A stretch of DNA of 64,000 nt, from the IMG/VR virus record IMGVR_UViG_3300050499_000294, positions 98-64,097 of that record, one strand, 5' to 3'. This document shows, in pieces, positions 1-26,862 of the stretch. The position numbers were made by a program, and so were the translations under genes. This DNA is from a virus. The notes under the pieces were generated by a model. The model was given only the letters and a program-made list of their open reading frames with translations, made no database searches and was not told the DNA's origin. Within the stretch, counting starts at the first letter, position 1, and the number at the start of each line of letters is the position of its first letter.

Positions 1-779
1 GGCTCACCCCGCTGGGAGTCCCGCATGACCTGACACACTTCCTGCCCAGATAACGCCCGATTGTAGAGTTTAATGTCATCCATGGCGCCGGGAAAATAGA
101 GCGACGGCGCTGCCACGTCTAACGTGCCCACCACGGTCGGCAGCGTGGTCACCGGGTACATCGTCCCCGAGGCCCCATTAAACGTGGTGGGGAGACAGTT
201 GGTATACCCTTGCAAGCCCGTGGCACTACTGTAGGTATAGGCCAGATGCGTCCAGACCCCCACAGGAATGGCGCCAGGATTGGCATTGTCTTGTTGCAGG
301 TAACTGGACGTCGACGTGACAAACGACACGTTCATGCCTCCACTGGATCGCACGATAATATCGCGGAATCCACTATTATTCCCCCCCGTCACGAGGCCTT
401 GATAGTCGTTGCCGGTGGCGGTCCGCTTCATCCACAAGAGGATACTGACGGCGGGGGGCCACAACTGCGCAGTGACCGGATGGGTGGCATAATCATTCGT
501 TCCGTCGAAGCGCATTTCGCCCTGCCCGCCAGGCCGCGTCGTCGCCCCCGCGCCACTACTCCCCGCCGTGTCGATATTGGTCACGGCTAGCGGGAAGCGC
601 CCGGTAAGATCGTACCAGGTGCGTCCCCCGCTCACGCCTGCGACCACGCGCCACCAAGCGAGGAGCCCCTGGGCGGTCGGCGCATTCCGGTCCAGCCGGG
701 GTTGCGCGAGCGCTGGCGTACTCAGCAGCGTTAGCAGCAGGAGCAGCGCTAGGGTATTTGTAACACGTACGGGGTGCAT
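1..779 (-). CDS. Exported LamG/concanavalin-A-like domain protein, runs off the left edge
   Basis: Not in the ORF track because it has no stop in the window. Manual translation: MHPVRVTNTLALLLLLTLLSTPALAQ...MRFDGTNDY...GVWTHLAYTY...YFPGAMDDIKLYNRALSGQEV, typical LamG motifs after a signal peptide. Confidence 0.75.
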   Translation of the reverse strand, partial: MHPVRVTNTLALLLLLTLLSTPALAQPRLDRNAPTAQGLLAWWRVVAGVSGGRTWYDLTGRFPLAVTNIDTAGSSGAGATTRPGGQGEMRFDGTNDYATHPVTAQLWPPAVSILLWMKRTATGNDYQGLVTGGNNSGFRDIIVRSSGGMNVSFVTSTSSYLQQDNANPGAIPVGVWTHLAYTYSSATGLQGYTNCLPTTFNGASGTMYPVTTLPTVVGTLDVAAPSLYFPGAMDDIKLYNRALSGQEVCQVMRDSQRGE

Positions 780-1249
780 CGTAAGGTCCATGGGGCGCCC
801 TGGAGGGTCACGCCCGTGCCGTCATTTTTGAGGAGAGCCTTGAACACCCCCCGCGGGAGTTCAATGCTCGGAATCACAATGCGCTGGGCCGTGCTAACCG
901 CGCGCAGGGGAAAGATGAAATCAGGGATCCTGGCTGGATCAGCGCCAGTAGTACCGTCTTCAAAATTGGTGCCGTCTGCTTGCCGAATGAGCCACACCAC
1001 GACCGCCGTATTGGCTGCCACAGTCCCACTCCAGGCCCCAGTACTCAGCTCACAATCTGCGCGGGTGTAGTTGGCACTTGCAAGCGTAATGTTGCCAGAA
1101 AGCACGCTGGAGCCACTCGCCAATCCGGTACTCGTGGTAATCCAGGTGTCGATCGTGCCCCGGAGCCACACGAAGGGGGACGCGGCCCAGAGCGGTGACA
1201 CCCAGAGCACAAGACTCAGGAAAAGGAGGGAAGCAAGACGTGTCCTCAT
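749..1249 (-). CDS. Exported hypothetical protein, paralog of the C-terminal part of 25583..26332
   Basis: Signal peptide MRTRLASLLFLSLVLWVSPLWA; ITLAS...VWLIRQADGTNFED resembles ITLAS...VYGVQALDDTPTWPD. Confidence 0.7.
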   Translation of the reverse strand: MRTRLASLLFLSLVLWVSPLWAASPFVWLRGTIDTWITTSTGLASGSSVLSGNITLASANYTRADCELSTGAWSGTVAANTAVVVWLIRQADGTNFEDGTTGADPARIPDFIFPLRAVSTAQRIVIPSIELPRGVFKALLKNDGTGVTLQGAPWTLRCTPYVLQIP

Positions 1250-1881
1250 GGCAGTGGCCCTCCTCGGAGCGCGTACCGGATATCGTGCTGCGTCAAGAAG
1301 CCTTCCCAGACAAGAAAGCCTGGATCCGCAGTCGTGCCGGCATTGGTTCCGGTGACATAGATTTTTTCTGCGCGGGTGACGGCGCGTGACGACTGCTGTT
1401 TAATGTGGTTGCGATTATTCGTGGCATTGCCCGGGAGTTTGAAAATCGCATCGAGGGCACTGTGGACATTGGGCAAACTCGCGTCCATCACCAGGCTCGG
1501 GCCATCAAAAAAGTCATGAAAAGTCATCAACTCCTGAACAGTCAAGGTCAAGTAGCCATTGCCCTCAAAGATAAAGCTCGTATTGGCAGGAGACTTCTCA
1601 AAAAGAATCGTCTTGCGCGTCACGGCCGTTTTGTAGACCTGGAACGTGGGCGTCACTGGTTGGTTGTACCTGTCCGCAATGACCTGATCCCGCCCGGCGG
1701 CGACATCGGCTTGATTCTCGTTCACGTCCGTCACCGTAATTTGGGTCTTCAGTTGCTGATACTGCGCCTCGGTGAGGGTCGTTGCTGCGCCGCCCCAGAC
1801 TACCCAAGGCACTAAGAGGAGCAGCCCGCACACCAGCGTTATGCACCATCCTGAGCTAAAAAGAGTTCTTTGAGTCGCCAT
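1246..1881 (-). CDS. Exported hypothetical protein, paralog of 26344..26862
   Basis: Hydrophobic N-terminus; TRAEKIYVTGTNAGTTADPGFLVWEGFLT aligns with SQAEKLLIVPSSGTGTTASPAVMGFQGNLT. Confidence 0.75.
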   Translation of the reverse strand: MATQRTLFSSGWCITLVCGLLLLVPWVVWGGAATTLTEAQYQQLKTQITVTDVNENQADVAAGRDQVIADRYNQPVTPTFQVYKTAVTRKTILFEKSPANTSFIFEGNGYLTLTVQELMTFHDFFDGPSLVMDASLPNVHSALDAIFKLPGNATNNRNHIKQQSSRAVTRAEKIYVTGTNAGTTADPGFLVWEGFLTQHDIRYALRGGPLP

Positions 1882-1893
1882 GCATACACTCCA

Positions 1894-2865
1894 TCAGTTC
1901 GTAGCAATCACCTGATGTTTGCCGTCCGCTTGCGAATAGGACAAACCAATATCAAACCAGCCCATCCCGGCAGCCGTGGCAGGACAGGTCATGGCGAGAG
2001 GAATATTGGGCGACGGCAAAAAGCCTGCTGTGCTCAGCGTCAAGGTCTGCGCGTTGGTGCATTTGAGACTAATACGCGTCAGCGTGCCATCCGTCACCGT
2101 GCCACTCACGGTAATGGTGAGCGTCCCCGCCGCCCCGGTCATGGTGTGCCGGCACAGGGCGGCGATCTGCGCATTGCAGTTCAGGCTGGTGGCCGTGCCT
2201 GTACTCGTGGTAATGCCGCGCCCAATGCCCCGCGTGGTGGCCACGGCCCCATACTTGGCGGAGACCGCATTGTAGAGCACTTTCACGCGATCCGTCGTGG
2301 TGCCGTCTCCGGTGGTGGCACTCGGGAGCGGAATGCCGTTTTCGGTGGTATAGATGGCGTGCCACGTGAGCGCCCGGGGCGTGGTCGACTTAAACCGAAA
2401 CGAGACCTCTTGCTCCTCGGTGGGATTGCCGCCCGTGCCGATGGGCGCGTTGATCGTGAGGTCCCCGGTAATGCCATCGACCACCACGACATCGGTCGTA
2501 TCCAGATTGGGCGTAATGGACAACGGCGTCCCCGCCGGCGTATACGCGACCGCCTTGGGAACGATTTGCTTATTCGTGACCTTTTGCGGGGCTGTGAGCA
2601 TGACCACATTGCTAATATCGAGGGCGAATGCGGTACAAATCGTCGTGCCATCGGGGCGCCAGCCGCTCACAAAGTTGTTGCTGCCGCAATTAGTGAGCGT
2701 GCCCGCCCGCAGCTTGTTCAGGCGCAGGTTGCTACTATGCATCCGACCGCCCAGTTGCTGCGCCTCGCTGAGGGCGAACGTGCCGCTAGTGAGCAGGAAG
2801 AGCAGACAGAGCAGGCATCGTCGCATCATGAACACTCCCATAGGACAATACGGCCTAAAACTCAC
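1894..2865 (-). CDS. Exported Thr/Gly-rich tail-fibre-like protein
   Basis: Signal peptide MMRRCLLCLLFLLTSGTFALSEA; beta-rich fibre-like repeats; six Cys in the mature part; true start may be slightly downstream. Confidence 0.7.
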   Translation of the reverse strand: MSFRPYCPMGVFMMRRCLLCLLFLLTSGTFALSEAQQLGGRMHSSNLRLNKLRAGTLTNCGSNNFVSGWRPDGTTICTAFALDISNVVMLTAPQKVTNKQIVPKAVAYTPAGTPLSITPNLDTTDVVVVDGITGDLTINAPIGTGGNPTEEQEVSFRFKSTTPRALTWHAIYTTENGIPLPSATTGDGTTTDRVKVLYNAVSAKYGAVATTRGIGRGITTSTGTATSLNCNAQIAALCRHTMTGAAGTLTITVSGTVTDGTLTRISLKCTNAQTLTLSTAGFLPSPNIPLAMTCPATAAGMGWFDIGLSYSQADGKHQVIATN

Positions 2866-3382
2866 CGCAGCTTACAATAAGATTAATCCGGGTGGCCGCC
2901 GTCAGCGCGATCGTATAGGTGGCCTGGAGCGTATCGCCGCTGGCCAGTTGGATATAGGGATTCCCGTCGCTATCGAGCGGCAAGCCCGGCCAGAGCGTCG
3001 GCGCCAACAGGTTGAGGGCGGGTGTCCCACTGGCAAAGCCTTGACTCACGAGCGTCTGAGCCGCCACCCCGCCGAACCGGATGCCGCCGCTCACGATTTG
3101 CACCGTCACGAGATGCGTCGTCGTCCCGTCATCCGTGGTGAGCCACATCGCATTACAGCGCGCCCCGTTCGTGCCCGCGGCATAGAGCGTTTTATAGGTC
3201 CCTGCCGTGTCGGTGCCCTGGAGAAATTGCACCTTGCCCACCGTGGGCGTCTGCATGAAGACCGGACTATTGGGCGTGACTGCCGCCCAGCTTGACCCCG
3301 CCAGGAAGGCCCCTAGCAGGGCCAGGAAGCCCATCACTCGTCGTCCGCGCATCCTAGAGTCCTCCCGCGTTGGCATGGGCAC
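2855..3382 (-). CDS. Exported hypothetical virion-like protein
   Basis: Signal peptide MRGRRVMGFLALLGAFLAGSSWA; coupled to neighbouring genes. Confidence 0.7.
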   Translation of the reverse strand: MPMPTREDSRMRGRRVMGFLALLGAFLAGSSWAAVTPNSPVFMQTPTVGKVQFLQGTDTAGTYKTLYAAGTNGARCNAMWLTTDDGTTTHLVTVQIVSGGIRFGGVAAQTLVSQGFASGTPALNLLAPTLWPGLPLDSDGNPYIQLASGDTLQATYTIALTAATRINLIVSCGEF

Positions 3383-3827
3383 TGAGGGCCGTCGTGGCGG
3401 TCACAAAGGCCGGGACGCCGCCGCCCCCGCCCCCCCCGCCGGCGCCACCCGGCCCGCCGCCCGTCAGTTGCATGTTGGTGCCGTCATAGCAGACCGTGAT
3501 GATCTGTCCATTCGCAATGTCATTCGCGGCCAGGTCCGTCGACACCGTCGACACAAACTTCCGCAGCGCCTTCACGCCCCGGGCATTGATATTGAGCGTC
3601 GCCGCGCCCGTCACGGTATGGTTGGCCTGAAACATAAAGCATTGATTGGTCACATAGGCCCCAATCGGCGGGTTGAGCGTCAGCACATAGGCATTGCCGC
3701 TCCCCGTGGCCGTCCCGGCGTTGATCGTGCCTGCTACGGTCAAGTTCGAGTTAAAAAACTGCCCTTGTGCCCAGGCGGGCGTGCTCCACAGGGCCATCAG
3801 GAGCAGGGGGATCCCCAGGCGTCTCAC
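3354..3827 (-). CDS. Exported protein carrying a tail-fibre-type domain
   Basis: Signal peptide MRRLGIPLLLMALWSTPAWA; AYVLTLNPPIGAY...ATLNINARGVKALRK...DLAANDIANGQIITVCYDGTNMQL resembles a common phage fibre module. Confidence 0.75.
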   Translation of the reverse strand: MRRLGIPLLLMALWSTPAWAQGQFFNSNLTVAGTINAGTATGSGNAYVLTLNPPIGAYVTNQCFMFQANHTVTGAATLNINARGVKALRKFVSTVSTDLAANDIANGQIITVCYDGTNMQLTGGGPGGAGGGGGGGGVPAFVTATTALSAHANAGGL

Positions 3828-5317
3828 GCAAGACCTCCTTTCTGGGCGAGGGCTTCGAGCACCGTCACACGCTCGGCCAATTGCTCTTTCTCCTGGCGCA
3901 CCGTCTCCAGGAGCTGATACACCGTTTTGAGCGCATTGAGGAGCAGGTACGGCAGGGCCTCGGTATCGAGCGCCAGGAGGTCCGTCTCCTCGCTGTTAGG
4001 CGTCAGCACGCCCCGGCGACTCGTCACCATATAGGGCGCCACAGCCTGCACGACTTGCGCCCGCAGGCCGATGTGCCGCTGGCGCGTAATCGGGATGCCG
4101 CCCTGGCCGTTATAGCGAAACCAGATCGGATCGAGCGCCAGGAGCACCTCAAGCCCCTCCACAAACGGCTCGATATCCTTTTTGAGCCGTTCGTCTGAGG
4201 GACTGAGCCAACTGCCGCCACCCGGTTTGGTCGCTGTGCCGGTAATCATCAAATTGCCGCTATTATCGGTCCGCTGCACGACCGTCCCGGTTTTGTTCAG
4301 GGTTTCCACGGCCTCGCCGCTGCCCATCTGGAGGAGGAGTGCACCGTCGTCACTTAAGACGCGCACGGCTGAGGCATTCGTGACGCCCGCGTCCCGGATT
4401 TCAAAATCGGTCCCGGTAATGGCGGTGGCTTTGACGATGATCAGCCGCCCGCTCGTGGGGGTTACGAAGGTCATGACCACGTCATGCGAATTCGGATCTA
4501 CTGTAATGCTGTTGGGCAGCAGGCTCTGGCGCGGACTCGCGTTGTCATAGACAGCAAAGAGCAACGCGGACGTCCCGAGCCCATGCGTGGCGCCGGGCAC
4601 GCTCACCGTCGTGGCACTGGCAAAGGTGGCCACAAACCGTGGGCCGGCCGCACTGACAATGATCGTGCCACTCGCAGGCGTGACAAAAGTGACTGTTACA
4701 TCCGCCGTCGCCGGGGCAATACTGACGGGCACCTGCGTCAGGATATTCTGGCTGCCGCTCACGGTATAGACGCGTACGAGGAGGTCTGCAGTCCCCAGGG
4801 CGTGCGTACTGCCGGGAATACTCACGGTCGTCTGATTGGTAAAGGACACCGTATATTGCGGACTCGGCGCCGCGAGACTGATGATCCCCGTTTGCGGCGT
4901 GAGGAAGGTAAACGTGGCATCATAGGTGAGCGTATCAATGGCTACGGTATTGGGCTGAATCACCTGGCGCGGGGTTTCCGCATTGTACGCCTGGAAAAGC
5001 GGTGCGGGCGTGCCGAGGCGATGCGTGGTCCCCGCAATGGTGACGCTCGTGGTGGCATTGAAGGTAAAAAAGAGCGGGCTCTCGCCACCCCCAGGGAGAA
5101 ACTGCTGGAGCCGCGCGGCGAGCGAGCCAAACGTGCCTTGCGGATTGGAGCCGAGGACCGTCTGGACCGCGACCATGGCCGCCAAGGCATCGTTGATGAC
5201 TTCCGAATCCAGGCGACTGGCACTATCGGGAGCCATCGGCGGCGCATTGATAAACGTCTGCCGTGTGTCGATGACTCCTGGGTAGCCAGTCCCGATTCCC
5301 GCGCCGAGTTGAGCCAC
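3824..5317 (-). CDS. Tail fibre with C-terminal peptidase S74 intramolecular chaperone
   Basis: SDERLKKDIEP...IWFRYN...HIGLRAQVVQAVAP...C-terminal coiled coil; three internal repeats of about 70 aa. Confidence 0.85.
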   Translation of the reverse strand: MAQLGAGIGTGYPGVIDTRQTFINAPPMAPDSASRLDSEVINDALAAMVAVQTVLGSNPQGTFGSLAARLQQFLPGGGESPLFFTFNATTSVTIAGTTHRLGTPAPLFQAYNAETPRQVIQPNTVAIDTLTYDATFTFLTPQTGIISLAAPSPQYTVSFTNQTTVSIPGSTHALGTADLLVRVYTVSGSQNILTQVPVSIAPATADVTVTFVTPASGTIIVSAAGPRFVATFASATTVSVPGATHGLGTSALLFAVYDNASPRQSLLPNSITVDPNSHDVVMTFVTPTSGRLIIVKATAITGTDFEIRDAGVTNASAVRVLSDDGALLLQMGSGEAVETLNKTGTVVQRTDNSGNLMITGTATKPGGGSWLSPSDERLKKDIEPFVEGLEVLLALDPIWFRYNGQGGIPITRQRHIGLRAQVVQAVAPYMVTSRRGVLTPNSEETDLLALDTEALPYLLLNALKTVYQLLETVRQEKEQLAERVTVLEALAQKGGLA

Positions 5318-5353
5318 TTTAAACTCTCTTCTTACAAACTATGTTGTGTCATA

Positions 5354-5680
5354 TTAAGACTGTACTTTCAAGGCTTCGAGGGCCTCCACCCGCGTCGTCA
5401 GTGCCGCCACCTGCTCCGCCAGCGTCGTCAGCGTCACGCCTGTCCCAGTGAGAGAGGGACCCTGCGGCTGGAGGGTACGCGGGCGGACGTCCTGGACCAC
5501 CTGGTCCCCCAGCACGCGCCACTGCTCCTGCATGCGGGACGGCGCCGTCTCGTCGCGGATGAGATACCCATAGCCGGGCTCGTCCGCGCCGCGCTGGGCT
5601 TCCAGAAAGACCCGCGCATTACTTTCCCAGAGCCCGACAATGGTCCCGTCATCCGTGCGGTATTTGACCAGATAGGCCAT
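5354..5680 (-). CDS. Hypothetical tail-associated protein with C-terminal coiled coil
   Basis: Co-oriented between tip protein and fibre; LAEQVAALTTRVEALE. Confidence 0.65.
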   Translation of the reverse strand: MAYLVKYRTDDGTIVGLWESNARVFLEAQRGADEPGYGYLIRDETAPSRMQEQWRVLGDQVVQDVRPRTLQPQGPSLTGTGVTLTTLAEQVAALTTRVEALEALKVQS

Positions 5681-5683
5681 ACG

Positions 5684-8600
5684 CTAGCGCTGCCTCCGAA
5701 AGCCGACCATCTTGATATGATCGGCGCCGATGGAATTCCCGGCCACGCCTCCATTCTTAAACGTGCCCACAAAGGCTTTCGTCCCGCTAAAGCCACTGGG
5801 GGCGGTATAGACGCCCTGGCACACCATCGTACTGCGCCCCGGGTTATTCGTTTGGCCATACGCGAGTTCTGGCGACCCCGAAGCCGCGCTATTTTCCCGA
5901 ACGCGCAGCTCACACGCGTCGTCGAGCGTGGCCACGCTCACGGTGGCGGTGAGGGTCACCCAGACTTGATCGCCCTCGTTCAAATCAAACACAAGCGACG
6001 CCAGCGCCGTCTCACTGATCGTCACACTGAGCCCCACAATGTCCGTATACGACACGCTGTTGGTGACGGCGTTGACGTAGATCTTCTCCGTGACGACCGC
6101 GGACGGGGCAATGCCGGGCGTTTGCGCCCCGGTCTCCGGGCTCCACATGAGGGAGCCATCCGCGTGGTAAATCAGGATGCTATAGTTGGTCGGCCCTGCC
6201 GCAATCCGCCCAATCCAGACGCGAATCGTGCCGTTATCGTCCCGGAGAATGATCTGGCGATTGACGCCGTCAAGGACAATCGGGGCAATGGATCCGGCTA
6301 CCGGCCCCCCCAGGAACACCTGCGCGTTAATCGTGCCCGCAATGATTTTGTCAGCAGCCAGGTCCAGAATATGCGCATTGCGGATCAGCGCATCTTGGAT
6401 TTGAGCCACGCCCGTAATGACCGCCGTATCGGTGCGCAGATGCCCCGCATTAATGACCCCGGTTTTAATTCCGGCTGCCGTGACACCGCTCTCATTCGCG
6501 TCAAACATGAGGCCGCCGCCACTATTAAAAATCTGAATGCCGTACTGATCCGAGAGCGGCCCGAGCTTCCCCAAGAGGACGCGGTTATTGCCCAGGTACT
6601 GATCGCGGATGACCATCAGACTATTGGTGCCATCAATATAGACGCGATCCGCCACGCCAATACTGACCAGCGCCGTGAGCTTCCCGGTAAGGATTTTGGT
6701 CGCCACCAGGGAGCTAATGAAGGTGTCGTCCAGTTGCCCAGCGACGGCCGTCACCCCTGCCGTGGCCGAGACGGGGTGAAACGGCCCAATATTGCCCGAG
6801 GTATCTACTGGACGAATCCAATAATAGGCCCGCTGATTGGCGACAAACCCCGTATGTTCAAAGCTGTAGCTGCCTTGCCCAATCACCCCAGCCGTGCTGC
6901 GATCGTTGAGCCCCGACGTCCAGACCTCACAGTAGTCGTAATCCAGATCGCCCGGCGGCGTCCAGAGCAGCGCAATCTTTTGCACGGTGCCGACGGCATA
7001 GAGGTTCGCGGCGGCGCTCGGTGGCGTCCCATCGCGGCCCGTCGTAATGGACACCTCGGGATCGGTAAACGCACTGAGATTCGCCAGGCGATCAATCGCG
7101 GCAATTTTGGCAAAGACCGTCACATTGCCGGGGACAAAAATTTTGTAGGTACTATCAAACCGTCCCGGCTGCACGACGGTCGGGATGTTGGGTGATGCCA
7201 CCCGAAACACGAGTTGAAAGCCGTTGAGATCCTCTTCTCCCTGGGGGTTCCAGTGCGCCTGCACCCAGGTCATCACCGTCCCGTCCGCACTGGCATCCGT
7301 CCCCGTCGTAAGGCGGAGGCCGGTCGGCACGGCTGGTGGCGTATTGTCCAGTTTGTCGGCCGTGAGGGCCACGGGCGTAAAGGAGGCAATGGCACTCGGA
7401 ATGCCAATGCCAAACGAGTCATAGGGAATAATCTGGACATAATAGGTGATGCCCGCGAGCAGATCCGGAATGAGCAGCACCTGGAAATCAATGCCGACCG
7501 TCTGATTAGGGATCGTGGGCGGGTTCCCGGCATCGAGTAACACCAGGAAATGATCAAAATCCCGCGGGCGGATCCATTGTTTCCAATCAATCCGCACCGC
7601 CTCAAAGAGCGCCTGGGCTTCCGGTAAGATATTACTCATGTCGGGCGGCGCATTGGTCACGACGATCACCGCAGGATCGAGCGACAAGAGCCCGGTATTG
7701 GTGACTGCCCACACCATCACCTGGAGATCGCGTCGCGCCCCGGCGTAGCCGCTGCGAATCTGGTCTTCTTCGTTTTGCTGATGGGTATACGTCCACTGCA
7801 CGCTCTGGCCTGCGGGCGCCAGGGCCGCATTATAGGCCCGCAGCAAGTAGAGTTGCCCCGGCGCCCAGACTTGCACCACGTAGAAGGCCACAAAAAACGT
7901 CTCGCTAAAGAGCGGGCTATCCGCCACCGCATCCCACTCGACATGCAGGTCCCGGCCTTCCCACAGGGACACGCCCACGGCCTGGCCCTGGAGACGCAAG
8001 TTCCGCGGCGTCGCGGGGAAGTAGCCGGGCGTCGTGGGGCCGGCAATATGAATGACGACTTCCCGCGCACCGATATTATTGGGGACCCCCAGGTGCGAGA
8101 TGGGGACGACGCGGTACTGATACGTCGAGCCACTAATGGCCGTATAGTCATCCCAATCCAGCACATGCCCCCGGACCTGGGTGAGCGGCGTATAGTTATA
8201 GTTGGGGTCATTGGGGTCACTAATCGCTCCGGCGCCAATCGTCCCGGCCTCCACCTGCCCCATTTGCCCCGTCGCCAGGAGCACGCGGCGCAAGATCATG
8301 GCGCCCCCGTAGAGCGCATAGCCACTACTCAAGGGGGCGACGTCCCATGAGAGATTAATGACGCGCAGACTCGCGCCGCTCGTCTGAATCCGCGTCACTT
8401 CGGTTGCCACGAGCGAGAGGAGCGGCGGCGGCGGGCCTTCCGGGTTAAAGAGCGTCGTAATGACCCCCAGCGGCGACGCCACGGCCTCATCATAGATGCT
8501 CGGGTTGTGAATCAGCGCTTCGAGACTCACGGTCAAATCATTTTTGCGCCGCAGACTGGTCACCCGGAACGTGCGCGTATTGGCATTGGTGGCCAGCGTC

Positions 8601-11295: not shown

Positions 11296-11307
11296 AATAT
11301 AACTTTT

Positions 11308-11814: not shown

Positions 11815-11848
11815 TAGACTTTCTCCGCTGCATAGAGGATACTCAGAG

Positions 11849-11907
11849 GTACGGCTATAAGCGGGGTTGCTACCGCTCGACCACCAGTCTCCACACTGGC
11901 GCCGTAC
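11849..11907 (+). promoter_or_regulatory. Three-way-junction RNA leader of HNH gene 1
   Basis: P1 GTACGGC/GCCGTAC, P2 AGCGG/CCGCT, P3 CCAGT/ACTGG; starts just after a -10-like GATACT at 11838. Confidence 0.45.
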
Positions 11908-11948
11908 GTTCTCCTTGTGGAGCCCTTCTCAACGTGGAGGTTGAGCCC

Positions 11949-18206: not shown

Positions 18207-18214
18207 AGCAACTC

Positions 18215-18667: not shown

Positions 18668-18685
18668 TTCCTGCGAGAGGATAGT

Positions 18686-19087
18686 TTAAAAAGTCACTGC
18701 CCCATCAACCGTCAGCTCGAATTCCAGGGGCAGCGCGCCATTGACCGGTGCGGACGGCACGCGGTAGCGCGTCACAAACGCGTTAAAAGTCCAGGTCGTG
18801 GCGCCGGTATTGGGAAAAACCACGGTAAAGACCGTCGAGGCGCGGTTAATCATCGCGGTCCGCAGGGCCACATGCTGCGCATTGGCGGGGACAAAGTTCG
18901 CGGACACGCGGATGGTGCCACCGTCGAGCAAGGTGGGGATTTTGCTAGCCCAATCACCGCCGTCGTGCGCGCTCACATCGACCACATTGAACTGTGCCCC
19001 GATTTCCGACACGTTAGTTATTTCTGGGATAGGCGTTCCCGCCATAGTAACAACTAAGCCAGTGGCCGCTATAGCCTGAGTCGGCAT
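18686..19087 (-). CDS. Major tail tube protein
   Basis: VVDVSAHD...IPTLLDGGTIRVSANFVP...WTFNAFVT...FELTVDG (lambda gpV-like). Confidence 0.85.
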   Translation of the reverse strand: MPTQAIAATGLVVTMAGTPIPEITNVSEIGAQFNVVDVSAHDGGDWASKIPTLLDGGTIRVSANFVPANAQHVALRTAMINRASTVFTVVFPNTGATTWTFNAFVTRYRVPSAPVNGALPLEFELTVDGAVTF

Positions 19088-19173
19088 AGTATAATCTTTC
19101 CTATAATAAGATAGTCTACATATATGATGCTTTTCCCTGTTTTTTCAGCCCCTCCTCGGCTATACTGAGAGGG

Positions 19174-19240
19174 TACTTGGTGAACGCCTTGCTAGCGTTC
19201 GTCAAAAGTCTCGTGTACTCACTTGCATGGGAGCCAAGTA
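19174..19240 (+). promoter_or_regulatory. Three-way-junction RNA leader of HNH gene 2
   Basis: P1 TACTTGG/CCAAGTA, P2 GAACGC/GCGTTC, linker GTCAAAAGT, P3 CTCGTGTA/TGCATGGG; TATACT at 19161. Confidence 0.5.
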
Positions 19241-19269
19241 CTCACCTTTACCTCAGTGAGGAGGCCCCT

Positions 19270-19950
19270 ATGGAAACCCCTGTGCACAAAGTCTGTCGTG
19301 GATGCGATCTGCTGAAATCCCTCGATGAGTTTGGTATTGACAAGTACACCAGCGATGGCAAAGCTACGCGCTGTATCCTGTGTAAGCGCCAAGGAAGTCT
19401 GAGATATCGTACCCAGCATCCTGAGAAGGTGCGTGCAGCTGTCGCACGCTGGCAACGCGAGAATCCTGAGAAACGACATGCCTATGAACAGGCGCATAAA
19501 GCGGAAAAACAGGCGCGAGGCAAAGCTCACTACCGGCAAAACAAAGCTTTGATGAATGCCCAAAGTGCGGCGTATTATGCAGCGCACCGGATGGCCCTGC
19601 GCCAAAAGCATGCCGACTGGTACGCGGAGCATCCTGACTGGATACAGGCCAAAGCCGATCGCCGGCGTACCGCAATGACTACGAGCTCTACCAACGACTT
19701 GACCGCCGCACAGTGGGAAGAAATCAAAAGTGCCTACGGTCATCGGTGTGTCTATTGCCGTCGCAAGATGAAACGCCTGACCCAAGACCACCTTACCCCC
19801 ATCAGTAAGGGCGGCGCGCACACACTGGCGAATGTGGTTCCTGCCTGCCAATCCTGCAACTCCAAGAAACATGCGAAGGCGCCTCTCATTCCTGTCCAAC
19901 CCTTACTGCTGACACTCGCTCCAGCCAAACCCTACAACAAGAGGGCCTAG
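19270..19950 (+). CDS. HNH endonuclease (antisense insertion)
   Basis: CVYC...TQDHLTPISKGGAHTLANVVPACQSCNSKK; RBS GGAGG before ATG 19270. Confidence 0.9.
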   Translation: METPVHKVCRGCDLLKSLDEFGIDKYTSDGKATRCILCKRQGSLRYRTQHPEKVRAAVARWQRENPEKRHAYEQAHKAEKQARGKAHYRQNKALMNAQSAAYYAAHRMALRQKHADWYAEHPDWIQAKADRRRTAMTTSSTNDLTAAQWEEIKSAYGHRCVYCRRKMKRLTQDHLTPISKGGAHTLANVVPACQSCNSKKHAKAPLIPVQPLLLTLAPAKPYNKRA

Positions 19951-20603
19951 GCTAAGATAGGCGCTCCATCAAATTCAAACGTGACTTGCCCCGTCAGTGC
20001 CCCTGCGACCGGCGCCTGATCGCGCCAACCCGTGACCCAACCAGACATCCACCATGTAGTCTTCGTCGCATTAGGCAGTACGAGGAGGTACGGACGACGA
20101 ATGCGATTTTCCATGAGATAGAGGAGGCCGGTGACTTCATTGTGCGTGCCATGTTCAGGGACGTGGTTGAGGACTAACCGCATGCTGTTATTGGAAAGCA
20201 TCGTCGGGATTTGCGAGCCCCATCCACCGATCCCGTCGTGAGCACTTACGTTAATCACCGACGCCATGATGCCCGCGTCCTGGATGTCCGTCACTTCCGC
20301 AATCGTGGCATACGTACTATCGAGGGTGAATACCCCACCCGACGTGTAGGCCCCGGTCCCCACTGAGCCCCGGAGCCGGGCGGTCGTGGGCGTCACGGCC
20401 TCAGCAATCCAGGTTCCATTCGCCCCGGTATTCCCGGCAACGCTGGTGACGGTCACCTTGGAGACATCGACAATCCCATGGACGGCTGCGGTGGTCACGA
20501 CAATCGGCGTGGCGTTGGTGGCAGCGGTAATGTTCAAAACAGCTGGAATACCGTCCCCGAGGCGCAGGGCTATTCCAAATGCGCTTATGGCAAGGGTTGG
20601 CAT
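19947..20603 (-). CDS. Second tail tube paralog with inserted FCCH-like beta-domain
   Basis: INVSAHDGIGGWGSQIPTML...WMSGWVTGWRDQAPVAGALTGQVTFEFDG is homologous to 18686..19087, plus an insert of about 70 aa. Confidence 0.8.
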   Translation of the reverse strand: MPTLAISAFGIALRLGDGIPAVLNITAATNATPIVVTTAAVHGIVDVSKVTVTSVAGNTGANGTWIAEAVTPTTARLRGSVGTGAYTSGGVFTLDSTYATIAEVTDIQDAGIMASVINVSAHDGIGGWGSQIPTMLSNNSMRLVLNHVPEHGTHNEVTGLLYLMENRIRRPYLLVLPNATKTTWWMSGWVTGWRDQAPVAGALTGQVTFEFDGAPILA

Positions 20604-20606
20604 GTG

Positions 20607-20855
20607 CTAGGCCCCCGCAGGCGTCGGCTGGGCCGGTTCGGGCTCGTCATCGGGGGCGGGTTCGTCGTCCGGAGCGGGCTCAGGAGGCGGAAACGGCGAT
20701 GGGGGTTCTCCCGCCGCGATGGCTGCCTGCAAGCGGACACAGTGCGCAATGTGGGCATCCATCCGCGCTTGTAGCAGCGTATCGTAGCCACAGGCGGGAC
20801 AGCGGAATTGGATGAGACCGGACCAGGATTCGGAGCGGTAGGGGGCATCGTCCAT
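20607..20855 (-). CDS. Small CxxC protein with acidic Pro-rich tail
   Basis: FRCPACGYDT...HIAHC; RBS GGAGG. Confidence 0.55.
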   Translation of the reverse strand: MDDAPYRSESWSGLIQFRCPACGYDTLLQARMDAHIAHCVRLQAAIAAGEPPSPFPPPEPAPDDEPAPDDEPEPAQPTPAGA

Positions 20856-20874
20856 GACGTGACCTCCAGCAACG

Positions 20875-20929
20875 ACAAAACCGCCGACAGCGACGAAGCA
20901 AACCGGTTGCTTCGAAACTCTGCGGCGGT
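20875..20929 (-). terminator. Long hairpin followed by TTTTGT, downstream of the CRISPR mini-array
   Basis: ACCGCCG...CGGCGGT outer stem with GAAGC/GCTTC inner stem; short U-run on the minus strand. Confidence 0.4.
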
Positions 20930-20974
20930 ATGTGTTACCTGGAGGATGCCAGGCGACCAGTGACTACCGTAGGA

Positions 20975-21064
20975 TTCACTCCCCCCACCATCGTGGGGAA
21001 CAGCACACGTACAGACACAGCGTCAAGCCATGTATCGGGTCATCCCCACACACGTGGGGAAGGC
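20975..21064 (-). CRISPR. Type I-E-like mini-array: repeat - 32-nt spacer - degenerate repeat, no cas genes
   Basis: Minus-strand repeat GCCTTCCCCACGTGTGTGGGGATGACCCG (21064-21036, 29 nt), spacer 21035-21004, second repeat CTGTTCCCCACGATGGTGGGGGGAGTGAA; 61-nt period. Confidence 0.7.
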
Positions 21065-21150
21065 CACCCTCTCAGCACTGCCTCTCAAAAGATATCGTGA
21101 GCCTAGCATACCCCCATACAAATCACACGACTTTTTTAGTAGTGCTCATC

Positions 21151-21543
21151 TCAGACAACAAAGGCCATATTTTCCACCGCAAACTGGACCTGAAAGGCGT
21201 CATGGCGCGTCCCGCTATCCCAGGTCCAGCGAAATTGCGCGACGCGGTACTCCAGCGCCAACTCGGGATCCACCATCGCCGTATCAGCAGGTTGAATCTG
21301 CCATTCGATGGTCGTGACGGCAGGAGAGCCAGCCGTCGTCACACTCACATCATTGGCATTCAGGACATTCTGGGCATTACGGCTATTGACGATCGTGCCG
21401 CTAATCACATCATAGTACGTGAGCGTCAGGGTCGTGAGCATGGACACCGGCACGCCTTCGCCCACACTATCGACGAGCAGAAACGTAAGGAGGCCAGTCG
21501 TCGCTTCGAGCAAGGTCGTGGACAACAAGGGAATCGTCGGCAT
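21151..21543 (-). CDS. Hypothetical structural protein
   Basis: Co-oriented in the tail module, beta-rich. Confidence 0.6.
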   Translation of the reverse strand: MPTIPLLSTTLLEATTGLLTFLLVDSVGEGVPVSMLTTLTLTYYDVISGTIVNSRNAQNVLNANDVSVTTAGSPAVTTIEWQIQPADTAMVDPELALEYRVAQFRWTWDSGTRHDAFQVQFAVENMAFVV

Positions 21544-21546
21544 AGA

Positions 21547-24500
21547 TCACCTCAAATCAGGATCGCGCGGGGACGCGGTACGCCGGAGAGTGCCGGCCTG
21601 CCCGTCCCCGCGCCGCAATGTTGGGCTGGTACCGGGGCTGGTACGCATGAGCGTGCCTGCCGTCTGGCTGCGCGTCAACGTGGCGGTCGTCGCTTGCCCC
21701 GTCCGTTGCAGCAGGGCGCCTGTGCCCATGAGGAGCAGGGGCATGTCGAGCATCGTGGCCCGCGCATTCGGCGTCGCACTACTCCCGCTGAGCGCACTGA
21801 GGAGCGCCCGCAGGCTCGTCTGAGTACTCAGCGGCGTGAGACTCACGGCGAGGAAAGCTGCGGCCAGATCGCGTAGTAGAGAGGCGGACGCGAGCGGCGT
21901 CTGACTGGCGAGGGCGAGCGTTGCCTGGAGGAAGCGGACGTAGGCCGCACTCGTCGGCGGCGTGAGACTCGCCGCGGCGAGGAAGGCCGTCAAACGCCGG
22001 AGGCTCACGGCCTGGGCAAGGGGCGTCTGGCTCGGGCCACTGAGGAACGCCTGGAGCCGTCGCACCAGTTGCCGGGCACTCACCGGCGTCGTACTGGTCC
22101 CGAGGAGACCCGCCTGGAAGGTCACACGCTTGGCCAGGATCGCGGCCGGGGTGGTACTGGTCCCCACGGCGATCACCCGCAACGCCCGGATCTGCCGGAG
22201 CACCGTGGCAGGCGTGGCACTACTCGGGGCAACTTGTGCCGTGAGGCGACGCCCCATCTGCCGCGCACTGGCGGGCGTCGTACTCGCCCCAAGGAGACTC
22301 GCCGTGAGGGAACGCACCCCGGCCTGTGCCGCCGTGGCGGGGGGCGTGACGCTCGCGGCAATGAGCACTGTACTGAGGCGTCTGGTCAGCGTGCGCGCAA
22401 CCGCAGGCGTCGTACTGGCGAGAGCGAGGTTCGTACTCAGGCGCCGTGCCAGGGAGCGGGCACTGGCCGGGGTCGTACTCGTTGCCGCCAGCGTCGCCGT
22501 GAGGGAGCGCACGGCACCCATGCTGGCGGTGGCCGTGGGCGTCTGGCTCGCCCCCAGGACCGCTGCCGTCAGCCGTCGCGCGAGTGTCCGGGCGCTGGCT
22601 AGCGTGAGACTGCTGGGCGCGAGCTGTGCCACGAGATGCCGGAGCGTGCCCATGGTCGCGGTCGCGGCGGGAGTCGTACTGGCCCCGCTGAGCGTTGCCT
22701 GGAGGCGGCGCGTGAACGTTGTCTGGCTGGCGGACGTGGTACTAGCGCCCAGCACTGCAGTCGTCAGCCGTCGCATCACCGTCCGCGCTGTCGTGGGCGT
22801 GGTACTCGTGCCACTGAGCGCGGCGCTGAGAGAGCGTACGGCGGTCACGGAGGCTTGGGCGGGTGGGGTGGTACTGGCTCCGGGCAGGGCAGCCGCAAAG
22901 CGATGCAGGACCGTCACCGCGCTCGTGGACGTCGTACTGGTCACAGGAAGCCCCGCGGCGAGGCGCCGTGTCACCGTGCGCGCACTCGCCGGGGTCGTGC
23001 TCTGGCCGCTGAGAACCGCCGTCAGACGCCGCAGGGTGAGCACAAGAGCCGTGGCACTGGGCGTCGTACTGGCCGCAGGCAGCGCGGCCTGGAGACGGCG
23101 TACGCTCGTCTGCGCACTGGTAGGTGTGGCGCTACTGCCAGGAAGGACACCCGTGAGGCGCCGGACCGTGGTGGGCCGGGCAGCGGCGGGGGTGGTACTC
23201 GCCCCGGCGAGCGTCGTCGTCAGGCGTCGCGTGAGCGTCCGGGCGGCAACGGGGGTGGTGCTGGCCCCGGCGAGTTGGCCGGTCAGGCGCCGCGTCAGCG
23301 TGCGCGCACTGACGGGCGTGGTACTGGTTCCAGCCAGCGCCGCCGTGAGCCGCCGCGTAGTCAGCAGCGTGGCCGTCGCTGCAGGGGTGGTACTACTGCC
23401 GAGCGCCGCCGCACTGAGGCGCCGCGTCACGGTCCGGGCACTTGTCGGGGTCGTACTCGTCCCCACCAGGTTCGCGGCAAAATGGGCGCCGGGGGGCGCC
23501 GGCGGCTGATACTGGAGAAACAGCACCGTGACATAGGGCGGCAGCATATCCGCCACGCTGTCCAGCGTCGGCGTGGTGGCGCCCGAGGTGGGAGCGGTCG
23601 AACCTGTATTGGGCCAGGTATGGGTATGCGTATCAGGCGGCGCGTTGGTGGCGCCAACGGTCCGCGCTTCCGAGGCACCCACCCCACCCGTCACCGTATG
23701 CACATGCGCGGCAATCGCGTGCGTATGCCCCGTCGCCGTGTGTCCATGGCTCGCGGTCGAGCCGCCACTACCGCCAATGGCGGCGACGGTAGAGGCACCT
23801 TTGACAAAGAGGCTGCGCAGGTCGGGAGTGCTGTTCGTGCCGTCACACAATACCCAATCTGTAGGAATCGTGGCGACTGTGCCGAGCCAGAGAGCGATAA
23901 TGCCGCTGGTCTTTTGCAGCGCGCCACTGACGTTTTGGAGATAGGCGAGGAGCCAGTACGGCGGCTCCGGGATACTGGCGCTGGTGGTACTATCCGTTTG
24001 CGCCGTCACGACTGGCGCAGGCGTACTGAAGGTAAGGGCGTGTGTGTGCGTGGCCGTCGCCACATTGGCCGTGGCCCCGCCGATGCTGCCGGTAGTGAGG
24101 GCTTCCGTGCGCTGACTACTGGTCACGCCGGGATGCGTATGGCTATACGTGCCGCCGTGACTGTGACTGGCAATGGTATGCGCATGGGTCGTGGCGCCGC
24201 CGCCCGTCCCGCCCGGTGCCCCGGCCGCCGGTGCCCCTTTGAGAAACGTTCCCCGGTAGTCCGGTCGTCCCCCGGCGCCATCACACAGGGACCAGTTAGC
24301 GGGCGCTCCGGCACTATCCGCCCACAGGCCAATGGTGGAGGCCGGAAAGCCATGAGTCACACCCTGGGACATGAGAAAGAGGGTTTCGACATACGCCGGC
24401 TCATGGTTCACCGTATCCGTACTGGGCGCCTCGGTCGTGAGCGTCGTCACGGGGTTGGGCGCGGCGGGATTCGAGCCGTGCGTATGCACCATAGGCGGGT

Positions 24501-25563
24501 TCGTGGTGCCCGTATCGCGCGTTGAGGGTGTCCCTCCCGTCCCCGTCGTATTGGGCGTCGTATGGGTATGCGCCGTGGTGTGGTCATGGGTCGTCGTGGG
24601 ATGCGTATGCGTGGCGCTCCCGCCCGTGGCACCCCCATTGGCACTCGCCGCGGCGCCCCGTGGATAGCGGCCATCAAGGGCGGTGGCGCGTGTCCACCCG
24701 GCAGGAATACTGGCGACGCTGCCGCTCCAGAGGACCGTAATCCCGGTAGCGATGGCGTCAGGATCGACGGGGACGGATATCCCGACAGGGACGACATGCA
24801 GCGGCGCGCGCCAGCGCAACTCCTGCGGATAGCGGAGGCAGGAGTCGCGGTAGAGGCGCCGCACCTCACTCGCACTCAAGGCCCGATTGTAGAGGCGGCA
24901 ATCGTCGAGTTGCCCTGGCAGATAAATATTGTTATAGCCACGCCCGAGCCACACGGTCCCGCTCACGGAGCCGGTCGCGGTACTGGCGATGCTCCCCCCC
25001 AGGACGCCATTCTTATAGATACTCAGCGTGCTACTGTCATGCGTCAGGGTGAGATAGGTCCAGGCCCCGACCGTATAGGGCACGCCAATGTGGGTATCTG
25101 AGCCCGTCCAGTTAAACGCCCACAGGCGGTCGTCCCCGGTCAGACTGGTGCGGTAGAGGCCAAAATACCCGGCATTCTCGGCGACAATGCCTTGCCCAAA
25201 ATAGACAGAGCTAATGGAGGGCGCCGTTCCCAGCGGCAAGACCCAGAGACTGACCGTGGCGGCCGTGGGGGTAATGTAGGTGGCCAGCGTTCCGGGGACG
25301 GCCAGGTGATCGTCCGTCCCATCAAAGCGCAGCGCGGCCCACCCGCCCGGACGTGTCGAGGCACCCCACCCGCTCGTGGCGGTCGAGGCACTCATGCCCG
25401 TCAAAGTGGCCGGAAGACGCTTCGCCAGATCGACCAGGCGCCGGCCCCCCACGCGCTTGGGGAGGAGCAACCACCAGGCCGTGAGCCCACGGTTCAGCGG
25501 TGCCTCCCAGGCGATGGGCTGGCCATAGTCCAGGCTGCGGGGACCCAGCAGATGCAGCGGCAT
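21547..25563 (-). CDS. Large tail appendage protein: LamG domain + three tail-collar-like modules + long repeat region
   Basis: LRFDGTDD...LDDCRLYNRALS; IPAGW, NWSLCDG...PDYRGTFLKGA, DWVLCDG...PDLRSLFVKGA; many RRLxAxLxGxSTTP repeats. Confidence 0.8.
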   Translation of the reverse strand: MPLHLLGPRSLDYGQPIAWEAPLNRGLTAWWLLLPKRVGGRRLVDLAKRLPATLTGMSASTATSGWGASTRPGGWAALRFDGTDDHLAVPGTLATYITPTAATVSLWVLPLGTAPSISSVYFGQGIVAENAGYFGLYRTSLTGDDRLWAFNWTGSDTHIGVPYTVGAWTYLTLTHDSSTLSIYKNGVLGGSIASTATGSVSGTVWLGRGYNNIYLPGQLDDCRLYNRALSASEVRRLYRDSCLRYPQELRWRAPLHVVPVGISVPVDPDAIATGITVLWSGSVASIPAGWTRATALDGRYPRGAAASANGGATGGSATHTHPTTTHDHTTAHTHTTPNTTGTGGTPSTRDTGTTNPPMVHTHGSNPAAPNPVTTLTTEAPSTDTVNHEPAYVETLFLMSQGVTHGFPASTIGLWADSAGAPANWSLCDGAGGRPDYRGTFLKGAPAAGAPGGTGGGATTHAHTIASHSHGGTYSHTHPGVTSSQRTEALTTGSIGGATANVATATHTHALTFSTPAPVVTAQTDSTTSASIPEPPYWLLAYLQNVSGALQKTSGIIALWLGTVATIPTDWVLCDGTNSTPDLRSLFVKGASTVAAIGGSGGSTASHGHTATGHTHAIAAHVHTVTGGVGASEARTVGATNAPPDTHTHTWPNTGSTAPTSGATTPTLDSVADMLPPYVTVLFLQYQPPAPPGAHFAANLVGTSTTPTSARTVTRRLSAAALGSSTTPAATATLLTTRRLTAALAGTSTTPVSARTLTRRLTGQLAGASTTPVAARTLTRRLTTTLAGASTTPAAARPTTVRRLTGVLPGSSATPTSAQTSVRRLQAALPAASTTPSATALVLTLRRLTAVLSGQSTTPASARTVTRRLAAGLPVTSTTSTSAVTVLHRFAAALPGASTTPPAQASVTAVRSLSAALSGTSTTPTTARTVMRRLTTAVLGASTTSASQTTFTRRLQATLSGASTTPAATATMGTLRHLVAQLAPSSLTLASARTLARRLTAAVLGASQTPTATASMGAVRSLTATLAATSTTPASARSLARRLSTNLALASTTPAVARTLTRRLSTVLIAASVTPPATAAQAGVRSLTASLLGASTTPASARQMGRRLTAQVAPSSATPATVLRQIRALRVIAVGTSTTPAAILAKRVTFQAGLLGTSTTPVSARQLVRRLQAFLSGPSQTPLAQAVSLRRLTAFLAAASLTPPTSAAYVRFLQATLALASQTPLASASLLRDLAAAFLAVSLTPLSTQTSLRALLSALSGSSATPNARATMLDMPLLLMGTGALLQRTGQATTATLTRSQTAGTLMRTSPGTSPTLRRGDGQAGTLRRTASPRDPDLR
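21760..23480 (-). repeat. More than 20 tandem repeats of about 21-23 aa (RRLTAALAGTSTTPASARTLT)
   Basis: Visible in the translation and as recurring gtcgtactg/gtggtactg in the DNA; boundaries approximate. Confidence 0.8.
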
Positions 25564-25582
25564 GGCACGGCCCCCTTCGGAC

Positions 25583-26332
25583 TCAGATGGCGGTCAGATA
25601 GGCCCCGATATAGGCGAGACTATGCAGCGAGCCAGTGGCGTGCAGGTTCTGGCCGGTATTATGCGACACGAAAACACTGAAGCGTTTGGGGACAAAGCCA
25701 AAGGCTTCCGCGAGGGTCAAAGTCCGGATGGGATAGTCCACGGCCGTGGACGCGCTCACGGCAGTGACCCCGAGGAGGATGAAGGCACTATCGAGGATGT
25801 AGGCATTGGTGACGGTGCACCCGGCATCGCTGCCCGTCATGGTGTCGGGCCAGGTCGGGGTATCGTCCAGGGCCTGCACGCCATAGACGCGGATTTCGGT
25901 ATCCACCGTCGGGGCGGAGGTGCCGGTAGTAATGGCCACAGTGATACGCCCGTCAATATAGAGATCCGAGGTATTGACGATGGCCGCCGATTCCCGTCCG
26001 ATCAGAAAGGTGGCGGAGGTAGCGAGCGAGGCGAGCGTAATCGTCAGCGGGGTCGAGGCCGCGTAGGCAATTTTGACGTTGGCGTTCTCTTTCAAGGCCA
26101 ACCACCAGGGGGCCTCGCCGGTCTGCTGGTAGGGCCGGTCATCGAAGTGTGGTGGTAGGCGCCGAGCAGGGGAAAGAAATTCAAAGTCGTGCCCCCGGTG
26201 CTTGACCTCCCACTCCCAGAGTTCCGCCGTAAAGTCCTGGAGCGTACGCCCGAGACGATGCCGGTGCTGGCAGGTCCAGCAGTACGCATCGAGGTCGAGC
26301 CGCACGCGGGCGTCTGGGGCACTAGGCGTCAT
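25583..26332 (-). CDS. Tail-associated protein with N-terminal CxxC..H motif; signal-less paralog of 749..1249
   Basis: YCWTCQHRH...KHRGH, then ITLASLA... domain. Confidence 0.65.
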   Translation of the reverse strand: MTPSAPDARVRLDLDAYCWTCQHRHRLGRTLQDFTAELWEWEVKHRGHDFEFLSPARRLPPHFDDRPYQQTGEAPWWLALKENANVKIAYAASTPLTITLASLATSATFLIGRESAAIVNTSDLYIDGRITVAITTGTSAPTVDTEIRVYGVQALDDTPTWPDTMTGSDAGCTVTNAYILDSAFILLGVTAVSASTAVDYPIRTLTLAEAFGFVPKRFSVFVSHNTGQNLHATGSLHSLAYIGAYLTAI

Positions 26333-26343
26333 GACGGTCTCCT

Positions 26344-26862
26344 CTAGGGAATGGCCCAGGCTTGTTCCACATCACTCCCGGTGAGGTTGCCCTGAAAGCC
26401 CATGACGGCAGGACTGGCCGTGGTGCCCGTACCACTGCTGGGGACGATGAGGAGCTTTTCGGCCTGCGAGGCTTTCTCGCGGCCCAGGGCGAGAAGAAAA
26501 TTGACCTGGGTCTGCGAGGCGCCCTGCCCGCCAAAAATGGCCTGCCAGCCGGCACGGGTTTGCGCCAGCGACGGATTGACGACCCCTGGATTAAACATGC
26601 GCGCCCAGGCATCCCGGTCTTGCACCGTTTGCGCCTTGTAGGTGGCCCAGTTCCACAGGGTATCGTCAGGGGAGGTCGCTTCGTACACCTCTTGTTCCGC
26701 CAGTGCCGTGCGCCAGACCCAGAAATCGGGCGATGCCACCTGGTTATAGCCAGCCGCAATCGTATAGGCGTTTTCGCCCGTGTGCGCCAGGGATCCATAC
26801 ACCGGATGCGCGGCAATGTCGGCTTTGAGGAGCGTCAACTGCTGGGTGGTCAGTGGCACCAA
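26344..26862 (-). CDS. Tail-associated protein; signal-less paralog of 1246..1881
   Basis: Shared LTxxQxxxLK...I, AEK..V..GTGTTASP...G.LT..D motifs. Confidence 0.75.
   Translation of the reverse strand: MVPLTTQQLTLLKADIAAHPVYGSLAHTGENAYTIAAGYNQVASPDFWVWRTALAEQEVYEATSPDDTLWNWATYKAQTVQDRDAWARMFNPGVVNPSLAQTRAGWQAIFGGQGASQTQVNFLLALGREKASQAEKLLIVPSSGTGTTASPAVMGFQGNLTGSDVEQAWAIP

Follow-up and report, generated by a model that had tools for sequence, protein, structure and literature searches.

T5 Llp, the Cor proteins of phi80 and N15, and lambda Lom are phage-encoded proteins with export signals whose genes lie beside those for tail fibres or receptor binding, and they act on the host envelope with regard to the phage's own receptor. 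Here we describe a locus in an uncultured soil prophage that invites comparison with them. The DNA analysed, referred to as the window, is 64,000 nucleotides (nt) long and corresponds to bases 98-64097 of the 64,380-base IMG/VR provirus record IMGVR_UViG_3300050499_000294. A three-gene module is present in it twice: cassette A (P0006, P0005 and P0004) lies among virion structural genes and its products are without signal peptides, and cassette B (P0003, P0002 and P0001) belongs to a block of genes at the left end of the window whose products begin with predicted signal peptides. This exported block is like Llp, Cor and Lom in being phage-encoded, having export signals and standing beside tail-fibre genes, but it is not homologous to them. 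Searching the literature, we found no case of a virion fibre module with exported paralogues, and no described system matches cassette B.

Two versions of a three-gene module

The three gene pairs are homologous, and their order and orientation are identical in the two cassettes (Table 1). P0003 and P0006 align by BLASTP with 30% identity over 138 amino acids (aa; E 6e-14), and P0001 matches the first ~250 residues of P0004 with 33% identity over 233 aa (E 2e-27), an alignment that also covers ~60 residues preceding the Pfam LamG region. Both P0001 and the N-terminal part of P0004 are members of PF13385 (Laminin_G_3), scoring 70.5 and 70.2 bits against a curated gathering threshold of 27.6 bits and covering profile positions 1-151 and 1-150 of 151, respectively. 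BLASTP gives no match between P0002 and P0005, and profiles were required for this middle pair: with family alignments of 29 (P0002) and 37 (P0005) sequences, hhalign reports a probability of 86% (E 4.7e-6) over 116 columns and places P0002 onto P0005 residues 101-246. A hidden Markov model (HMM) of the P0005 family matches many P0002-family proteins that lack a signal peptide, with scores of up to 36.9 bits, and P0225 forms a BLASTP bridge, matching both P0002 and P0005. The P0002 family is large; a HMMER search with its profile collects 1,303 representatives at the 50% identity level, mostly of ~145 aa and without signal peptide. Confident AlphaFold2 models of P0005 and P0002 (predicted local distance difference test score [pLDDT] 82 and 88) each contain a jelly-roll, and in exhaustive structural alignment the two models match identical chains over identical ranges, among them BcsB 67-207 (Z 8.9 and 8.0 for the two models), PNGase F (7.6 and 9.1) and the nanovirus capsid FBNSV (8.1 and 7.3), and also TNF-family members and BclA (Z ~7.3) and the Bd2133 fibre tip.

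An earlier note on this DNA, made from the letters of the sequence, had proposed that a three-gene cassette occurs twice in the same order, and had named pairwise HMM or structural alignment as the check. BLASTP for the outer pairs, and profile and fold for the middle pair, confirm this, with similarity found for all three. LamG and the jelly-roll are common folds, and together with the silence of BLASTP on the middle pair this might point to a chance likeness, or to one confined to a widely shared LamG domain with no kinship between the cassettes as such. We rejected this explanation on the three ordered and co-oriented homologous pairs at the E values given above (a profile value for the middle pair), and the occurrence of the same three-gene order in at least 10 other loci leaves it scarcely credible.

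Judging from the trees, the cassettes are old, diverged versions of one module and not the products of a recent duplication. In the gene-1 tree, from which very long rows were excluded and in which part of the signal-peptide clade consists of gene calls truncated at the N-terminus, P0003 and its relatives lie with 17 other signal-peptide-clade members on one side of a branch with 100 support in the Shimodaira–Hasegawa-like approximate likelihood ratio test, and P0006 falls among the forms without signal peptide. In the LamG tree P0004 groups with its L006 orthologue and P0001 with the exported LamGs of L021, L004 and L002; sisterhood of P0001 and P0004 is rejected by the approximately unbiased test (p 5.5e-6), at a cost of 49 log-likelihood units. 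The suggestion that a virion module was duplicated within this phage is thus not borne out, and a phylogeny of the two copies, which the earlier note had also called for, instead places P0001 with exported LamGs of other phages, including that of a Baseplate_J-type contig (L021).

Comparison of the window phage with its sister phage (L002) shows the LamG domains to be the most divergent segments, with 36% identity in the virion copy and 35% in the exported copy against 85-95% in the backbone. This pattern fits a role of both LamG domains as specificity determinants. Exported and virion LamGs within one phage share 33% and 26% identity, and those between phages 31% and 31%; because the within-phage LamGs are no closer than those between phages, the comparison lends no support to a shared ligand or specificity.

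Export signals and cysteine signature of cassette B

Signal peptides were called heuristically, by looking for a basic n-region, then a hydrophobic stretch of 10 or more residues (h-region), with small residues at positions -3 and -1. P0001, P0002 and P0003 have the classical n-h-c layout of a Sec (type I) signal peptide, with likely cleavage sites, seen by eye in the sequence, at ALA↓QP, LWA↓AS and VWG↓GA, respectively, and hydropathy maxima (11-residue window) of 2.7-3.0 as compared with 0.15-0.96 for P0004-P0006. By these heuristic measures the left-hand copy alone carries signal peptides, as had been proposed, and the same is true of its neighbours, with six of six genes from 3827 to 1 starting with one. 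There is no Cys after the predicted cleavage sites of P0001-P0003, which therefore lack the lipobox of Llp/Cor-type lipoproteins. PADLOC returned no match for the exported proteins, and NCBIfam nothing useful.

The jelly-roll proteins carry a second mark of the division. Both Cys at the columns of P0002 C66 and C158 are present in 34 of the 38 family members with a signal peptide and in none of the 121 without (159 members in all), and four changes suffice to account for the signal-peptide label on the jelly-roll tree. P0005 has a CxxC...H...KHxxH motif at residues ~17-50 (window 26183-26284, minus strand), within an N-terminal domain modelled as beta-beta-alpha; it is conserved in full-length P0005 relatives and missing from the ~167-aa short forms and from the exported paralogue. 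This domain looks like a zinc ribbon, and its motif would be suited to a reducing compartment. The tracking of the Cys pair with the signal peptide and the zinc-ribbon-like domain of P0005 agree with a real difference in compartment.

The P0001 gene continues for 97 nt past the start of the window, as far as the record goes, to residue 295, and is essentially complete, since its relatives are 280-301 aa long with the same FFPFF end. We note that the exported LamG proteins terminate in a Pro-rich linker and an '(R)FFPFF..P' tail (L001:1-100, minus strand; L002, L004, L017, L018, L021 and L025), which may be a docking peptide. The ALRGxPLP motif at the P0003 C-terminus is common to the exported gene-1 lineage.

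Prediction of a complex of mature P0001 with P0002 scores 0.48 (best control 0.00), with at least 59% of contacts agreeing among runs and a partner pLDDT of at least 83. Of 80 solved complexes, 58 attained the mark used for such predictions, as did 2 of 110 mismatched pairs; scores of 0.60 or below are weak, in that only 7 of the 80 solved complexes passed there, together with both mismatches, and the result hints, weakly, that P0001 and P0002 could associate.

The exported block and its relatives

The exported trio occupies the middle of a longer block that comprises seven or more signal-peptide proteins and in relatives ends in signal-peptide beta-helix enzymes. The earlier picture of a virion-type module with one copy exported stands as to paralogy, gene order and signal peptides, but that of a self-contained trio does not. 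The S74 fibre gene is the final gene without a signal peptide ahead of the block; P0230 overlaps its end by 4 nt, and P0230, P0229 and P0228 overlap or abut one another. Promoter and terminator consensus scans of the block gave matches no commoner than in shuffled sequence. As far as consensus scans go, the block does not have the flanking promoter and terminator of its own that characterize a 'moron', its genes overlapping or abutting from the S74 fibre gene on. The overlaps and the lack of any excess of promoters and terminators suggest that the block is co-expressed with the late genes.

In L002, L004, L017, L018/L019, L021 and L025 the exported trio follows tail or fibre genes and precedes genes for signal-peptide beta-helix proteins, and this linkage holds in every relative with enough sequence. 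The order shared by L004, L017, L018/L019, L021 and L025 is a fibre-like protein with a P0228-like end, gene 1, the jelly-roll, the LamG protein (with FFPFF), and one or two beta-helix proteins, all with signal peptides. The sister phage L002 has the LamG protein followed by a 1,569-aa signal-peptide right-handed beta-helix protein and then a GH9 cellulase-type lipoprotein with a lipobox-like VAAC. The beta-helix proteins of the relatives are 735-1,595 aa long and match PF13229/PF05048; there are two paralogues in L021, and L025 also has an S74 fibre homologue.

Several further features of these relatives may be noted. L025:983-5938 encodes a single 1,651-aa signal-peptide protein with a P0230-like start and a P0228-like end, which seems to correspond to three separate genes in the window (those of P0230, P0229 and P0228). 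A conserved small membrane protein ('LGITGPIVIPV...GWIRS') is encoded after the beta-helix genes in three unrelated backbones (L017:15508-15828, L018:16363-16821 and L021:16086-16556) and could be a holin-like or anchoring partner. At L017:16112-20591 the exported block adjoins TrbI, VirB8 and TrbL type IV secretion genes, which raises the possibility that the block may also be carried on conjugative elements. In L004 a 247-aa open reading frame (ORF) separates the P0003 homologue from that of P0002; rich in Arg and Cys and without relatives, it looks spurious and was discarded. Comparison by tblastx of the relatives' far flanks with the window yields mostly noise, with one credible match from the L004 end to window position ~54.8 kb.

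The virion-side cassette and gene map

All genes from ~32 kb to base 1 are on the minus strand and form a single structural operon. Its order is head genes, tail terminator, Gp80 protein, cassette A, major tail protein, tape-measure protein, lambda-J-like central fibre, S74-type fibre and the six signal-peptide genes, of which cassette B comprises the final three.

Table 1. Coordinates and supporting matches of the features described, in the window and in relatives.
Feature	Coordinates	Strand	Match or basis
Tail terminator	27874-28281	-	PF12691
Gp80 protein, 279 aa, two tandem Gp80 domains	27023-27862	-	PF23140, E 2.6e-48, 164 bits
Cassette A gene 1, P0006, 172 aa, no signal peptide	26344-26862	-	No Pfam or PHROG entry for family
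Cassette A gene 2, P0005, 249 aa; zinc-ribbon-like N-part of ~80 aa, jelly-roll 85-249	25583-26332	-	AlphaFold2 model, motif
Cassette A gene 3, P0004, 1338 aa	21547-25563	-	LamG, fibre part and repeats
P0004 LamG domain, residues 1-255	24799-25563	-	PF13385
P0004 fibre part, residues 268-684	within 21547-25563	-	phrog_5795 'tail protein', E 2.8e-34
P0004 tandem repeats, residues ~690-1290	21694-23496	-	~27 units of 21-23 aa
S74-type tail fibre, cytoplasmic	3824-5317	-	S74-type C-terminal region; phrog_1980 and related families
P0230, signal peptide, tail-fibre-tip-like	3354-3827	-	phrog_28171 (phage family, function not assigned)
P0229, signal peptide	2855-3382	-	Exported block
P0228, signal peptide	1894-2865	-	Exported block
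Cassette B gene 1, P0003, 211 aa, signal peptide 1-~31	1246-1881	-	C-terminal ALRGxPLP
Cassette B gene 2, P0002, 166 aa, signal peptide 1-22, jelly-roll 27-165	749-1249	-	Cys pair C66/C158
Cassette B gene 3, P0001, LamG, at least 295 aa, signal peptide 1-29	3-791, continuing past window start	-	PF13385
Post-trio beta-helix regions of relatives	L002:11940-18524; L004:12564-17351; L021:11356-16070		Right-handed beta-helix

Cassette A thus stands between the tail-terminator and Gp80-type genes and the major tail gene. Immediately upstream is the gene for the Gp80-domain protein, with the PF12691 tail terminator beyond; the match of this protein to PF23140 falls in two stretches and is well above the curated threshold of 27 bits, which places it in that family. 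Gp80 is the monomer of a chain-like fibre of podophage GP4 (PMC13730344). The adjoining Gp80 gene marks this slot as that of a virion fibre module, and cassette A most likely encodes an adhesin of a side or neck fibre of the virion, along with two accessory subunits. The proposal that one copy is cytoplasmic and sits in the virion-fibre part of the late operon is supported by its Gp80 and tail-gene neighbours and by its freedom from signal peptides. The same signal-peptide-less module of small protein, jelly-roll and LamG protein recurs in the distant phage contigs L009-L015, often next to head genes. Two tandem P0005-like genes stand ahead of the LamG protein gene in L009 (9956-11405) and L010 (7780-9229).

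In P0004 the LamG domain is joined to a fibre of ~1,100 aa. The C-terminal half of the protein is built of tandem repeats whose unit reads 'RLtaxLxGxSTTPxxA...'; at the DNA level these register in short stretches only. WxxCDG...PDxRG motifs in the middle of P0004 are ones that we take to be of collar type, as a lead; a search for the tail collar domain PF07484 there gave no Pfam match at E <= 0.1. The P0006 family has Atlas relatives that are 91-100% viral and is without a Pfam or PHROG entry. A profile of the P0003/P0006 family run against PDB sequences gave noise only (E 0.3), and the Atlas structure neighbours of this family are unnamed viral clusters.

A tblastn search of P0005, P0006, P0225 and P0166 against 50,697 cultured-phage records gave no match, which leaves no studied phage as a guide. 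Among GTDB species genomes the family is present at one locus, on a 2.8-kb contig of a Neisseriales metagenome-assembled genome, and in two of 400 genomes of the same class. Two of the three module families are new to Pfam and PHROG. A PHROG scan of candidate lysis ORFs found no spanin or endolysin.

Discussion

The explanation that best accommodates these observations is that the prophage carries two anciently diverged versions of a conserved module composed of a small protein (P0006/P0003), a CBM/TNF-like jelly-roll (P0005/P0002; CBM, carbohydrate-binding module) and a LamG lectin-like protein. Version A would be made and used in the cytoplasm, its LamG–fibre fusion serving as a virion adhesin with accessory subunits. 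Version B represents a separate and widespread exported lineage, with a cleavable Sec signal peptide on every member and a jelly-roll that has gained the Cys pair, and its genes are translationally coupled to the tail-fibre gene within a run of signal-peptide fibre-like proteins. Homology, gene order, the signal peptides, the Cys signature, the separateness of the lineages and the beta-helix linkage are shown by the data; complex formation, glycan binding, the timing of expression and the purpose of the proteins are inferences. We tentatively suggest, giving it slightly less than an even chance, that cassette B supplies glycan recognition to an exported set of proteins that bind and degrade polysaccharide and are produced in the late phase of infection. 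Domains of PNGase F and CBM36/CBM6 are the closest folds to the jelly-roll (Z 8.7-9.3), which has no Pfam match. Such a set would have as its target the polysaccharide of the host itself, at the surface or in the periplasm, and its likely purposes would be freeing progeny from the matrix, stopping re-adsorption to debris, or stripping receptor.

Several points weigh against this proposal. The LamG tree does not split cleanly into exported and virion forms, requiring three changes and not resolving into two clades. The signal-peptide calls depend on hydropathy and cleavage motifs and are heuristic, and the proteins may end up in either the periplasm or the medium. The beta-helix gene lies outside this record, which ends in or just after P0001, and its presence is deduced from relatives whose neighbouring genes are 75-87% identical; elsewhere, a 1267-aa LamG protein comes after the exported jelly-roll P0343, and that record shows no beta-helix match. 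Jelly-roll matches at Z 8-9 reflect a common arrangement and are no demonstration of sugar binding, and for every family member the functional role is read from sequences and models.

Paralogy with the virion adhesion module raises the possibility, put forward in the earlier note in the form of a soluble mimic, that the exported trio binds the receptor of the virion fibre and masks it from the periplasmic or outer face, or as a soluble competitor, giving superinfection exclusion or protection of progeny by a non-enzymatic route. Its genes adjoin those for receptor binding, a position shared by llp of T5, cor of phi80 and lom of lambda, and both LamG domains are hypervariable between sister phages. 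A decoy of this kind nevertheless seems unlikely: the exported and virion LamGs of one phage are no more alike than those of different phages, the trio is constantly linked to signal-peptide beta-helix enzymes, its genes are coupled to the late operon and do not form a prophage-expressed unit, and its proteins lack both a lipobox and a PADLOC match. We consider it similarly unlikely that the block is host-benefit cargo, that is, a lysogenic conversion set of secreted lectins and glycanases for adhesion of the lysogen, biofilm remodelling or polysaccharide foraging, unrelated to the phage receptor. No separate promoter or terminator was found in the consensus scans, the genes overlap with late genes, the block stays behind tail-fibre genes across several phage backbones, and the family is rare in cellular genomes; these facts outweigh, in our view, the GH9 cellulase-type lipoprotein behind the beta-helix protein of L002, the TrbI/VirB8/TrbL genes beside the block in L017, and the resemblance of the jelly-roll to CBMs of plant-polysaccharide enzymes, all of which would suit such cargo.

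The exported proteins might instead be virion parts matured in the periplasm, where fibre-, lectin- and beta-helix-type proteins would fold with disulfides and join finished particles after lysis as second fibres or spikes. A J protein, an S74 fibre and the cassette A fibre, all made in the cytoplasm, are already available to the virion, the mature N-termini show no evident docking domain, and our literature searches turned up no precedent among tailed phages, nor do we know of one; this makes such a route rather improbable. It has in its favour that the block occupies the usual distal fibre or tailspike slot and is coupled to the S74 fibre gene, that its domains are of virion type (P0230, which matches phrog_28171 and looks fibre-tip-like, and the beta-helix proteins that come next in relatives), that the same block stands behind tail genes in both J-type and Baseplate_J-type backbones, and that the Cys pair tracks the signal peptide. 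A broader version is that fibre, lectin and spike proteins are routed through Sec as a full second set and folded with disulfides in the periplasm, either arming particles after lysis or acting free as a 'bind and destroy' counterpart of the virion adhesin. We regard this as doubtful; if true, it would be a way of assembly or egress that has not been described in tailed phages, one conserved across several backbones.

The export of such a block would have practical consequences. It is routine to annotate tail-fibre-like genes found downstream of the central fibre as encoding receptor-binding proteins of the virion, and here a whole run of them has export signals and disulfide signatures, in several uncultured lineages. 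If the block proteins are exported, then host-range prediction and phage engineering would be mistaken wherever these proteins are taken for components of the virion. The cassette pair also amounts to a natural experiment in which each of three protein families occurs as a cytoplasmic virion form and as an exported form, allowing study of how an adhesion module is re-used and of a possible balance between binding and destroying receptor glycans.

Among described systems, the Bdellovibrio Bd2133 fibre (PDB 8ond, 8ok3) has C-terminal domains with a fold likeness to both jelly-roll models (Z 6.6-7.1). Bd2133 fibres are presumably phage-fibre-like adhesins exported to the bacterial surface; they differ in being encoded by predator chromosomal genes with no phage late operon, and the likeness is to a generic jelly-roll without sequence relationship. 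The two Gp80 domains encoded upstream of cassette A recall the chain-like fibres of podophages GP4 (gp80), A1002 (gp40/gp41) and VP1 (gp11), as described in PMC13730344, but the window phage is long-tailed (of J, tape-measure and major-tail-protein type) and the cassette A proteins are not Gp80-like; no LamG or jelly-roll partner of Gp80 chain fibres appears in the passages of that paper that were examined. The beta-helix proteins behind the trio in relatives resemble phage depolymerases, which are beta-helix tailspikes that can also be soluble, and the periplasmic beta-helix Vi-antigen depolymerase of bacteria that PMC6003464 describes. Described phage depolymerases are virion-bound or freed by lysis and not Sec-exported, and in the present case the beta-helix gene is outside the window and its activity putative. 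Finally, Llp, Cor and Lom each stand alone as a small lipoprotein or outer-membrane protein with no relation to virion proteins, whereas the exported block described here is a multi-gene set containing virion-module paralogues, free of lipoboxes, and coupled to the late operon.

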